From a virus (Duplodnaviria > Heunggongvirae > Uroviricota > Caudoviricetes), in the IMG/VR virus record IMGVR_UViG_2721755727_000003: a DNA stretch of 23,561 nt; one strand, given 5' to 3'. Under the pieces are notes generated by a model. The model was not told the origin of the DNA, made no database searches, and was given only the letters and a program-made list of their open reading frames with translations. Shown piece after piece: positions 12,391 to 15,267 of this stretch; positions within the stretch are counted from its first letter, which is position 1, and every line of letters starts with the position of its first letter. A program made the translations under genes and the position numbers.

Positions 12391-12860
12391 TTATCGCCCG
12401 GTATGCAGTAACGAAATTTACCGCCCTGATTTACGCGAATCAGACGACCTTTGCTGATTGCCATTGCCAGCGTTGAAGCCACTTTGCGTGATGTGGTACC
12501 AAACAATGTAGCCAGCTCATCAGCCGTTTGTGGTCCTCGTTGTTCAATCGTCGCGGTTAAATCGCACTCTGAGATTTTCGCTACTGTTGCTGTGGTGATT
12601 TCTTCCGGCAGTTCTGCCTGCGCTGGCTGTTCCTGCTGAACATTGTTATCAGCCACACGCCAGGTGTACGCGCTTTTATCAACAAAACCAGCCTTTTTCA
12701 GTTCCCATAGTTCGTTCAGCACTTCTTCACGACTGATATCAAGTCGCGCAGCAAGTTCTATGGATGTGGCTTTTCCCATTGCTTTCAGTGCGTCAAAAAC
12801 AGTCTCCATTAAATTTTTCTCCCGGTAAAAATTACTTCGCAATTCCTGGCTGGACGACAT
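12249..12860 (-). CDS. ydaW: Rac prophage protein YdaW; only about the first 160 codons appear native, the 3' end is an out-of-frame read-through of Rz sequence (deletion fusion)
   Basis: 203-aa ORF, ATG is the complement of 12858-12860, overlapping the ydaV 3' end. The C-terminal ~45 residues are encoded by DNA that in another frame encodes the Rz N-terminus. Confidence 0.7.
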
Positions 12861-13578
12861 TCGGACGCCAGCTCTCCCAGTTAAAATTCACCCATCGCCC
12901 GCCGTTCATGGTCATGCGATCCATAATCCGCTCGCCGAGCAATGTTTTCATGGCCTCATAGTTCAGGTTTGTCAGCATCCCCACGCTGCGCATCGACGCT
13001 GTCCGGCGATCAACAATCTGGTGCAGTACCACCTGCTCGTTTTTCGTCTCGCGCTGAATGCCAATTTCATCAAGAACCAGCAGATCCACTTCGCACAGTT
13101 CCCGCAAAAATTTTTCGCCTGACTGCCCATCGTCATAGCTGGCGTGCAGGGCACTCATAACATCAGCCACGGTAACCACAATCACTGTCTGACCGTCTTT
13201 CAGCAGGCGATTCCCGATAGCTGCCGCTAAGTGGTTCTTCCCGGTACCAGGTTTTCCGCTGAACGCAAAATTTGTACACCCGGTCATCAGTTCATCAGCG
13301 ATGGATTTCGCCTGACTCAACGCGTATCGCTGCCCTTCGTTCTGCACCTGGTAATTCGAAAACGAGCATTTGCGGTGCAATGGCTGGATGCCAGAGCGAT
13401 TCAGAATTTTTTCCACCCGCAACTGACGATTCTGACGGTTGATCTCCTCACAACGTTTCTGGCCTTCGGAAAGTTGCCACTCGCGCCACTCCGCTACCGT
13501 CTTGAATGGCGCGGTTACATGTGACGGGGCCAGTCTGCGGATACGTTCAAGAACATCGCCTGTCGCAATATTTTTCAT
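12832..13578 (-). CDS. ydaV: DnaC/IstB-like AAA+ replication helicase-loader protein, 248 aa
   Basis: Walker [11 protein letters not shown] and Walker [10 protein letters not shown]; its position after the O-like gene. Confidence 0.9.
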
Positions 13579-13584
13579 GGTCAG

Positions 13585-14442
13585 TTACCCCCTGAAGCCT
13601 GGCGGGATCGCACTATCCGGTAACGAGACGGTGTTAACCTGTCGGAGTAACGTCTCAGGTCGAACACCTTTCGGCGCGAACAAGCCCTGGTATTCATTGG
13701 CGATGCTGTGTCGAATCACCTGCTCAGGTGAAAAACCCTGCTGGCGGAATTTTTCCAGCTCCCGTATCGCCCCGTTAGCGCCCTGCTCCGTTCGAATCGG
13801 TTTTCGCAATGCCTGGCGAAATTCAACCCACTCACGCCAAAGCGAGACAGAAATCCAGTTCGGCAAAGTAATATCCAGAGGGTCAAACTTTTTGACACCT
13901 CGATTCCCCCGGGGGGGATTTAGGGGGGGATCTGTTTTTAGATCTTTATCTGTATCTTTATTAGTTGCCTTTGTGTTGACATCATGTTCAAACACCACTT
14001 CAACATCTGTTTGAACACCTGTTAAATTTCTCTCTTGTTTTGTTTGAACATCTGCTTCCTTTCTGCTTCTTCTGGCCTGAACAGATGCTTTTCCTGCGGC
14101 TGATTTTTTGGTTAATTTTTCCCTGACTGATGCCAGATCTTCCTCAATCCGAAGATGCACCCATTCCTCGCCGTTATCGCAAAAAAACTCCTGCAAGGAT
14201 GGTTCAACATCAGCCCATCGCTCGTTAGTCAGACGGGCAATTTTTGCCAGCCTGTTTTTAGGTATTGGCTTTCCTGTTTGCCAGTAATTGAACATCAGCA
14301 ACAAATACGCACCATGCTCCTCTGCTGACAAATGCATGGTGTCAGCCAGGTAATCAGCTATGTACAGTTGCATGTATGGTAATGCGGCCATAATTGCCCC
14401 GTATGATGCTGCCCGGTGGCTTAGAATAAGCACAAACAGCAT
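13585..14442 (-). CDS. ydaU: Replication initiation protein (lambda O-like role), 285 aa; contains the iteron-like cluster
   Basis: 285-aa ORF, ATG is the complement of 14440-14442, position upstream of the DnaC-like gene; the middle of the gene carries iterons, an AT-rich stretch and G7 tracts. Confidence 0.85.
   Translation of the reverse strand: MLFVLILSHRAASYGAIMAALPYMQLYIADYLADTMHLSAEEHGAYLLLMFNYWQTGKPIPKNRLAKIARLTNERWADVEPSLQEFFCDNGEEWVHLRIEEDLASVREKLTKKSAAGKASVQARRSRKEADVQTKQERNLTGVQTDVEVVFEHDVNTKATNKDTDKDLKTDPPLNPPRGNRGVKKFDPLDITLPNWISVSLWREWVEFRQALRKPIRTEQGANGAIRELEKFRQQGFSPEQVIRHSIANEYQGLFAPKGVRPETLLRQVNTVSLPDSAIPPGFRG
13882..14055. repeat. Iteron-like repeat cluster with adjacent AT-rich stretch and two G7 homopolymers (candidate prophage origin inside ydaU)
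   Basis: ATGTTCAAACACC (13984..13996), CTGTTTGAACACC (14007..14019), TGTTTGAACATC (14041..14052); palindrome GTCAAACTTTTTGAC (13882..13896); G7 at 13911..13917 and 13923..13929; AT-rich 13931..13980. Confidence 0.45.
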
Positions 14443-14454
14443 GGAAACTTTTGC

Positions 14455-14877
14455 TTAATGAACAATGACAGAATCGTCGGAAGAACCGCCGCCGCTGAAA
14501 TGCGCTTTCCGGTAAACGGCTTGGACTGCATCATCATGCGCATCAATTGCCGTACTTAACGCTTCCTGCGCCGCCAGTAATGCACGGCGTTCCAGGGTAT
14601 CGAAGATGCAGAGTCGGTGACGCAGCTCGCGCGGAAGGATTGCCAGAATTGCTGGGATCAGCTTCTGAATTTTTTCTCTTTGCGTTTTCGTTTCACCTTT
14701 CAACCAACGGTGATAGATATTCTGCTGATTGTTCCAGTCCTTGCCTGGAACCAGGGGCAATTCGCCGCCCCCCTGGCGCAGATATTCTTCAGTAATTGCA
14801 TTGGCTACCCATGCCTGCCCTTTTTCGGCTGCTAGGGCAAACAACACTGATTCGATGTGCTCATGCTTGATTTTCAT
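14455..14877 (-). CDS. ydaT: Rac prophage protein YdaT, 140 aa (cII-position gene of the rightward-type operon)
   Basis: 140-aa ORF immediately downstream of ydaS on the same strand; ATG is the complement of 14875-14877. Confidence 0.88.
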   Translation of the reverse strand: MKIKHEHIESVLFALAAEKGQAWVANAITEEYLRQGGGELPLVPGKDWNNQQNIYHRWLKGETKTQREKIQKLIPAILAILPRELRHRLCIFDTLERRALLAAQEALSTAIDAHDDAVQAVYRKAHFSGGGSSDDSVIVH

Positions 14878-14899: not shown

Positions 14900-15196
14900 T
14901 CAGGTATGATCAAATGAGGATTTGTTACTGTCATTTAGTTGCTTCACTGACATATTCTGCGAACAACATGCCGAACGTCGTAAATATGACCAGTCAATAT
15001 CAGGACGAAGTTCTTCGCACAGAACCTCACCTCTTGTTGCACGTTCAATTGCTGGACATCTCTCGGCAGGCAATTGACGTACCCCTTTGATCCATTGATT
15101 TACGCTTGGAGGTGATACACCTAAAAGCCTAGCCATTGCTGATTGCCCACCGACAACAGCACAAGCTTGCTTGAATGAATAGTTCTCTTTTTTCAT
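14900..15196 (-). CDS. ydaS: Cro-like HTH (XRE-family) regulator, 98 aa
   Basis: HTH motif (QSAMARLLGVSPPSVNQWIKG); divergent from racR; GGAG RBS about 9 nt upstream of the ATG. Confidence 0.88.
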   Translation of the reverse strand: MKKENYSFKQACAVVGGQSAMARLLGVSPPSVNQWIKGVRQLPAERCPAIERATRGEVLCEELRPDIDWSYLRRSACCSQNMSVKQLNDSNKSSFDHT

Positions 15197-15222: not shown

Positions 15223-15267
15223 ATATTAGGCGACGCCTAACGCAATTGTCAATAGGCTGTGCCTAAT
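15223..15267 (-). promoter_or_regulatory. ydaS promoter (PR-like) with two palindromic candidate RacR operators
   Basis: On the minus strand: -35 TTGACA (complement of 15247..15252), 18-bp spacer, -10 TAATAT (complement of 15223..15228). Operators TTAGGCGACGCCTAA (15226..15240, perfect palindrome) and ATAGGCTGTGCCTAAT (15252..15267). Confidence 0.55.

Follow-up and report, generated by a model that had tools for sequence, protein, structure and literature searches.

Sequence anatomy of a candidate replication origin inside the ydaU gene of the Rac prophage

The cryptic prophage Rac of Escherichia coli K-12 makes up the stretch of DNA that we have analyzed here (23,561 nucleotides, IMG/VR record IMGVR_UViG_2721755727_000003), which we call the window. 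Positions 13585-14442 of the window are 100% identical to ydaU of strain MG1655. The gene belongs to the minus-strand series ydaS-ydaT-ydaU-ydaV, from which racR diverges on the plus strand. Inside ydaU lies a cluster of short repeated sites next to an AT-rich tract, and this element is the candidate for the replication origin of Rac that is described here. An origin at this place had been proposed in a preliminary description of the sequence, which listed three copies of a short motif, a palindrome, an AT-rich run and two tracts of seven G residues (G7) in the linker-coding part of ydaU. All of these are present where it had located them. The curated reference record NC_000913.3 has no annotation of an origin at the ydaU locus.

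The site array in ydaU and its conservation

The near-palindromic 10-mer TGTTYRAACA occurs in ydaU in three exact copies (iterons 2, 3 and 5 in Table 1) and nowhere else in the window. The copies span 66 bp, and iteron 5 is inverted relative to the other two. The array is wider than these three copies and comprises about six GTTSAAC-like sites at 13975-14082, just downstream of the part of the gene that encodes the DUF1376 domain. On the coding strand the sites read in order GTTCAGG, GTTCAAAC, GTTCAAAC, GTTGAAG, GTTTGAAC and GTCAAC. Counted from Met18 of the annotated protein, they start at nt 310, 343, 376, 388, 399 and 412, and the resulting spacings of 33, 33, 12, 11 and 13 bp correspond to one or three helical turns. 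Directly adjoining the array on its promoter-distal side is the AT-rich run, which is T-rich on the plus strand. The GC content of 13931-13980 is 0.30, and no 50-mer in the ydaV-ydaS module has a lower GC content than the one that starts at 13930. In the same numbering the sites fill nt 310-417 and the AT-rich tract nt 418-461 of ydaU, between the DUF1376 domain and the C-terminal domain.

The clustering of the sites exceeds both chance and the demand of the protein sequence. In none of 300 block shuffles did any 10-mer occur three times within 70 nt, and at least three GTTSAAC-type matches per 120 nt are reached within the window by the ydaU array only (4 matches; P = 0.004). When the codons of ydaU were shuffled synonymously, the observed motif count was attained in 0.4% of the trials.

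The same arrangement was found far outside E. coli. A species scan with one genome each gave 80 loci, and 45 non-redundant genes among them carry an AGKAS anchor that ends the N-terminal region. This set of homologues spans Gamma-, Beta- and Alphaproteobacteria. Matches to GTTSAA/TTSAAC are present 15-165 nt past the anchor in 45/45 genes, and phased pairs of matches in 29. Counted in bins of 30 nt, the matches peak at 0.93 and 0.60 per sequence and fall to 0.00-0.07 across most of the C-terminal half. Of 44 pairs of successive matches, 23 are 11 bp apart, 8 are 22-24 bp apart and 6 are 33-34 bp apart, and the consensus of the tandem unit across homologues is GTTSAAC-RNCC. The G of GTT stands at codon position 1, 2 or 3 in 37, 33 and 19 cases, respectively. 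As a period of 11 bp shifts the reading frame from copy to copy, the linker peptides RST/CST, VE/VQ and LN/FN, combined in (R/C)ST-x-VE-x-PLN, can be read as one DNA motif in three frames. The motif encodes differing peptides in these frames, and therefore the object of selection would be the DNA and not the peptide. An unbiased count of 6-mers in nt 301-420 of five genes placed GTTCAA/TTGAAC and GTTGAA/TTCAAC at the top with 10 occurrences each, a number that no 6-mer reached in 1000 synonymous shuffles. GTTGAAC/GTTCAAC arrays in the corresponding part of the gene were also found in an enterobacterial IMG/VR group (58% identity), in the Pseudomonas phages UFJF_PfDIW6 and AH02 and in Bordetella phage IFTN6 (33-48%). 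These arrays are spaced by 11, 12 or 22 bp and are followed by A-rich microsatellites such as (ATACAG)n and (AACCAG)n. In 78-84% of the sequences the tract 90-150 nt past the anchor is richer in AT than the remainder of the gene, with an excess of +0.08 to +0.13.

GTTSAAC-type motifs also occur inside the DUF1376-coding region, at 14202-14208 and 14288-14294 of the window, and Rac retains a GTTGAAC at the former. In many homologues a second set of motifs lies at -111, -100 and -87 nt from the AGKAS anchor, 11-13 bp apart, where the encoded peptide is W-x-DVE-xx-LNEFF. These motifs may be extra binding sites or a by-product of the conserved residues.

Modules, proteins and neighboring features

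In E. coli genomes ydaU is a mosaic. The N-terminal and the C-terminal half are found separately, and the junctions lie at about 13935-13946 inside the AT-rich tract. At three loci (L002, L078 and L081) the DUF1376 half is fused to a different C-terminal half, whose partner is a lambda-P-like gene, and the iterons and most of the AT-rich tract accompany the DUF1376 half. The foreign half of L002 carries a Pfam DnaT domain, and the gene that follows has a Pfam lambda-P match. Phage Rac-SA53 (L009) has the same gene layout as L002, with a short partner gene named ydaV. The reciprocal combination is present at L003 and L005, which retain the C-terminal half of YdaU and ydaV behind an unrelated N-terminal domain. 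No GTTSAAC match was found in these two genes, and they have instead, at the same gene position (nt 322-405), five GTTAC/GTAAC sites followed by a (GAGGAA)n tract. The lambda O gene likewise has no match to GTTSAAC. Judged by these exchanges, the iteron sequence co-varies and travels with the N-terminal domain, as would be expected of a specificity unit. Such units of initiator domain and iterons are known for lambdoid O genes.

The only Pfam match of YdaU is DUF1376 (PF07120), at residues 22-104 of the annotated open reading frame. A homology search with YdaU itself gave only near-identical E. coli proteins, and a single-sequence AlphaFold2 prediction of the N-terminal domain was unusable (predicted local distance difference test of about 40-50). 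An alphaproteobacterial homologue as query yielded a usable alignment, with which the modeling was repeated. The alignment-based model of the N-terminal domain is a winged helix, and its nearest folds include the winged helices of replication initiators. Comparison of the N-domain profile with solved structures gave no significant match. We take DUF1376 as the putative iteron-binding domain. The C-terminal half weakly resembles the C-terminal domain of DnaT (PDB 2ru8, E = 0.003; 9zbt) and, in tblastn, the C-terminal halves of Gifsy-1 and SPN3UB 'O' (phage 'replication protein O'). PHROG matches of YdaU are to 'primosomal protein' and, in this half, to 'replication initiation O-like'. In the mosaics this half accompanies ydaV, and it would be a candidate for the domain that recruits the loader. 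Taken together, the domain matches describe YdaU as a putative two-domain initiator. There is no match of YdaU to Phage_rep_O (PF04492), which lambda O does match, and by this measure YdaU falls outside the lambda O family. The preliminary description had called ydaV a DnaC-like loader gene, and the profile matches agree. YdaV matches IstB_IS21 (PF01695, 9.2e-20) and Bac_DnaA in Pfam, PHROG_50 'DnaC-like helicase loader' with 1.7e-85, and the NCBIfam DnaC model with 2.3e-92 and 309 bits, which is under the curated equivalog cut-off of 357 bits. We conclude from these matches that YdaV is a predicted loader of the IstB/DnaC-type AAA+ kind and a close relative of DnaC.

The annotated start of ydaU, the ATG at 14442 that gives 285 residues, is probably 17 codons too early. 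All homologues begin with MAALPYMQ, and this holds also for mosaic E. coli alleles with PGAP annotation. This points to the ATG at 14391 (Met18), which has GGGG 5 nt upstream. Transcription from the pR-like promoter upstream of ydaS would cross the candidate origin. In metagenomic data we noticed short DUF1376 proteins (about 160-185 residues; P0122, P0137, P0138, P0140 and others), many of them fused to HNH endonuclease domains (PF01844, PF14279). In such fusions DUF1376 may target DNA for purposes other than replication initiation.

Table 1. Features of the ydaU region of the Rac prophage, with positions in the window.
Feature	Position	Strand	Remarks
ydaV (DnaC-like helicase loader)	12832..13578	-	Pfam, PHROG and NCBIfam matches
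ydaU (putative initiator gene containing the candidate origin)	13585..14442	-	100% identity to K-12 ydaU
Coding region of YdaU C-terminal domain, DnaT C-terminal-like	13585..13881	-	PDB sequence matches, tblastn
Palindrome GTCAAActtTTTGAC	13882..13896		codes VKKFD; judged coincidental
C5/G7/G7 block	13906..13934		CCCCCGGGGG palindrome and two 12-bp units GGGGGGGATTTA (PPLN-PP); linker coding on the C-module side
AT-rich tract	13931..13974		A-rich on coding strand; two GATC sites; candidate DNA-unwinding region; holds the mosaic junction
Weak site 6, GTTGAC (coding GTCAAC)	13975..13980		allele-variable
Iteron 5, TGTTCAAACA	13985..13994		inverted relative to iterons 2 and 3; different frame (VFEH vs VQT)
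Weak site 4, CTTCAAC (coding GTTGAAG)	13998..14004		fits family core GTTSAA; missing in some alleles
Iteron 3, TGTTTGAACA	14008..14017		core 14009-14016 invariant in 39 distinct close alleles
Iteron 2, TGTTTGAACA	14041..14050		near-palindrome
Weak iteron-like site 1, CCTGAAC (coding GTTCAGG)	14076..14082		33 bp from site 2; outside the strict statistical motif definition
DUF1376 domain coding region	14131..14379	-	predicted winged helix, then long helix
ydaT	14455-14877	-	
ydaS	14900-15196	-	
pR-like promoter upstream of ydaS-ydaT-ydaU-ydaV	15223..15252	-	TTGACA-18-TAATAT, 10/12 matches; consensus match only

The microsatellite part of the AT-rich tract varies in 6-bp steps among close relatives (NKDKNKNKNKD in L075 vs NKDKNKNKD in L077; TDTD in L101 vs TDTDTD in L102 and L103). 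The presumed unwinding tract appears to tolerate or to generate changes in repeat number. In E. coli ECMA0423 (L095), in Shigella flexneri SFBU1023 (L096) and at L068, ydaU is truncated or diverged just past the iterons (…VFEHDAGFAPIF…, …NKDTEPPRVSW…), with breakpoints at the AT-rich tract. The Rac-type ydaU alleles of seven IMG/VR contigs (L066 and L069-L074) carry an insertion of about 114 residues that replaces PPLNPPRGNRGV directly after the AT-rich tract, equivalent to about 13895-13930 of the window. This insertion contains GRIDIVVTD...ELD, reminiscent of a PD-(D/E)xK nuclease, with a match to Pfam REase_MTES_1575 that is not significant (E = 0.23). It may be a mobile insertion beside the candidate origin.

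Several further sequences in and around the AT-rich tract were considered as origin components and rejected. The palindrome at 13882-13896, which the preliminary description had counted among the origin features, is at chance level, since ydaU contains 4 palindromes with six-bp arms against 1.1 expected, and the homologue L075 lacks it. The palindrome with the C5 and G5 arms seemed at first to be a conserved origin boundary that is kept in a few homologues, but only 8 of the 45 have it. For an oriC-like 13-mer, GATCTGTTTTTAG at 13929-13941, 13 matches with at most 2 mismatches were found where 11.4 are expected, which is chance frequency. DnaA boxes are absent in and near ydaU and are fewer than expected over the entire window. 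The locus does not have the make-up of a DnaA-dependent origin of the oriC type.

Origin reading and rival explanations

The sequence features that mark a lambda-type origin can be recognized in ydaU, namely the location in the linker-coding part, at least three dyad-symmetric sites, an adjoining AT-rich tract and co-variation of the sites with the N-terminal domain. We therefore consider it likely that the sites at 13975-14082 and the tract at 13931-13974 form the cis-acting, initiator-embedded origin of the Rac prophage, in all likelihood oriJ. This reading builds on the 45 homologues, whose genes have the motif array and the AT-rich tract at the corresponding place, with the motif in three frames and paired with the N-terminal domain. 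It is also based on the likeness of YdaV to DnaC, on the winged-helix model of the N-terminal domain and on a position and order of elements as in ori-lambda. The comparison thus supports the earlier proposal that iterons and AT-rich tract in the linker-coding part of ydaU, followed by a DnaC-like loader gene, are the origin of Rac.

The origin oriJ has been known genetically since the late 1970s and was reportedly defined by Diaz and Pritchard in 1978-79 and by Potrykus et al. in 2000. That Rac has an active origin oriJ is stated in PMC3945230, and oriJ-based plasmids are cited in PMC11014345 with reference to Potrykus et al. 2000. In a supplementary table of PMC3945230 (2014) primers are described as 'framing oriJ'. 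Since these primers map in ydaV, the base-pair position of oriJ is apparently not common knowledge. In PMC11014345 (2023) ydaUVW are listed among the genes without a determined function. Titles and abstracts of the literature on 'DUF1376' gave no sign of a characterization of the domain.

A number of observations weigh against the origin reading. The 'framing oriJ' primers amplify 13167-13321, about 650 bp from the iteron cluster; we treat this amplicon, which contains Walker-A coding sequence and no origin-like feature, as a nearby copy-number probe. Rac is termed replication-defective in PMC11014345 (2023). The motif was defined on the very data to which it was then applied, for which the negative controls and the unbiased k-mer count compensate only partly. 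The strong Rac sites have an 8-bp core, GTT-YR-AAC, with one extra central base compared to the 7-bp GTTSAAC of the family, and because of this base the equation of the TGTTYRAACA sites with the family motif is one that we only infer. Weak sites 4 and 6 are absent from some close alleles. Among 39 distinct close E. coli alleles the fraction of variable sites is 0.227 in the iteron cores vs 0.260 in the flanks, that is, there is no depletion in the cores. Many of these copies reside in defective prophages, and the comparison of core constraint among close alleles is uninformative.

One could regard the repeats as a mere by-product of the encoded linker peptide, which is repetitive and of low complexity (VQT, VE, DVN, TDKD); as DNA they would then be functionless. 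Two of the three strong copies do encode VQT, the linker is of low complexity, and the missing extra conservation of the cores among close alleles would agree with such a by-product. However, the third copy lies in another frame and orientation and encodes VFEH, and the 45 homologues use three frames and an 11-bp rather than a 3n period, keeping the DNA motif while the peptides differ. Synonymous shuffles also fail to reproduce the motif counts. The by-product reading is thus already disfavored, and we hold it to be very unlikely. Less easily set aside, but still rather improbable in our view, is the possibility that the sites are genuine YdaU-binding sites at which replication does not initiate. 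They could serve autoregulation, copy-number control by handcuffing or a transcription roadblock, with the unwinding site or the true origin elsewhere in Rac. What the comparative data establish is a conserved, phased motif tied to the N-terminal domain and not unwinding as such, the motif cluster in the DUF1376-coding region indicates that sites are not confined to the linker, and the 'framing oriJ' primers map inside ydaV. In contrast, the array consistently precedes the most AT-rich or microsatellite tract of the gene, which is the layout of ori-lambda, and the window offers no alternative in the form of a second iteron cluster, an origin-like feature in the ydaV amplicon or a DnaA box in or near ydaU.

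The G7 tracts require a separate comment, since the preliminary description had seen in them both origin components and potential hotspots of slipped-strand mispairing. The tracts, at 13911-13917 and 13923-13929, are two copies of an in-frame 12-bp tandem unit (coding CCCCCCCTAAAT, peptide PPLN). Relative to the recombination junction they belong to the C-module side, and most homologues lack them. Judged by this, the G7 block, and likewise the palindrome at 13882-13896, are best taken as linker coding sequence and not as conserved parts of the origin. A slipped-strand, phase-variable on/off switch of the initiator gene is the least probable of the explanations considered, and we give it almost no credence. 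In its favor is a single G6 frameshift allele, found when 40 rows were inspected from the 744 E. coli genomes that have the segment; a homopolymer difference seen in just one assembly may also stem from a sequencing error. The region 13875-13965 is identical in 636 of these 744 genomes, and the length variants in 53 fetched copies are in-frame changes of the 12-bp unit only, with two units in 51 copies, three in an IMG/VR contig and four in an O145 strain. The frequent ±1 polymorphism of a phase-variable homopolymer locus is not seen. Hence, of the proposed slippage the one G6 allele is what stands, while the other variation has another form, and the evidence for phase variation is minimal.

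If the origin reading is correct, initiation at ydaU might proceed as follows. The winged helix of DUF1376 would bind the near-palindromic GTTSAAC-type sites, probably as dimers, with the 8-10-bp TGTTYRAACA as the Rac variant. In the coding sequence of YdaU's own inter-domain linker these sites follow one another at about one or three helical turns. The resulting nucleoprotein complex would destabilize the neighboring tract at 13931-13974, which is AT-rich and strand-asymmetric. With its DnaT-like C-terminal domain, YdaU could then recruit YdaV and host DnaB onto the opened DNA, in analogy to lambda O-P-DnaB and to DnaT-DnaC. Transcription from the pR-like promoter, presumably repressed by RacR, would supply YdaU and YdaV and at the same time traverse the origin.

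The kind of element is ordinary, while the initiator family is previously undescribed. A wider proposal, for which we see about equal weight on either side, is that DUF1376/YdaU proteins are a widespread, uncharacterized class of phage and prophage initiators, whose winged helix recognizes a near-universal 7-bp GTTSAAC in strict 11-bp register within their own gene. If this holds, the linker peptide RST-x-VE-x-PLN would be dictated by a DNA element and not by protein function. The recognition sequence would be near-constant across Gamma-, Beta- and Alphaproteobacteria, unlike the pairs of O and iterons in lambdoid phages, and Rac would be a variant with a spacing of +1 bp. Origins of unrelated hosts could then cross-react, and the origins of the family could be predicted from sequence alone. 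For Rac, the reading would provide a base-pair location and an anatomy for oriJ, and it proposes a function for DUF1376 and ydaU, that of an origin-binding winged-helix initiator. It also suggests a rule for finding origins in proteobacterial prophages, which is to look just past the DUF1376-coding part for 11-bp-phased GTTSAAC followed by an AT-rich or microsatellite tract. The locus would be a clear case of a DNA element that shapes the peptide encoded across the same stretch. In practical terms, the reading bears on Rac induction, on the essentiality of racR and on K-12 strains with de-repressed Rac genes.

Comparison with known origins and initiators

The closest parallel is ori-lambda. 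Here, too, the initiator gene contains the origin, at the place where a linker is encoded that joins an N-terminal domain for origin binding to a C-terminal one for loader binding. In gene O four iterons at nt 349-433 are followed by an A-rich tract. In both systems transcription first passes dyad-symmetric repeats and then a tract whose coding strand is A-rich, and the gene coordinates of the two arrangements nearly coincide. In both, the N-terminal half and the iterons form an exchangeable specificity unit, while the C-terminal half pairs with the loader gene. The gene order also agrees, with a Cro-like gene, a gene in the cII position, the initiator and the loader under a repressor-controlled promoter. 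However, there are distinct differences between the two systems. The N-terminal domain of lambda O is Phage_rep_O and that of YdaU DUF1376. The four lambda iterons are 18 bp long with start-to-start distances of 20-24 bp, whereas Rac has palindromes of 7-10 bp at 11-13 or 33 bp. The loader in lambda is P, while Rac has a loader of the DnaC/IstB-type AAA+ kind and a DnaT-like C-terminal domain in YdaU.

With oriJ the ydaU element shares the prophage, and it is the only origin-like cluster of iterons and AT-rich sequence in the 23.5-kb window. Winged-helix initiators such as RepA_N of multiresistance plasmids, the N-terminal domain of DnaD and the winged-helix domains of ORC/Cdc6 would be related to the N-terminal domain of YdaU as modeled. 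The host proteins DnaT and DnaC offer a further parallel. The dnaT and dnaC genes are adjacent and in the same order as ydaU and ydaV, and with a C-terminal domain of YdaU that resembles that of DnaT and a YdaV that resembles DnaC, the ydaU-ydaV pair mirrors the host pair. In contrast, DnaT acts in origin-independent restart and has neither a DUF1376 domain nor iterons, and YdaV scores below the NCBIfam equivalog cut-off for DnaC (309 vs 357 bits).

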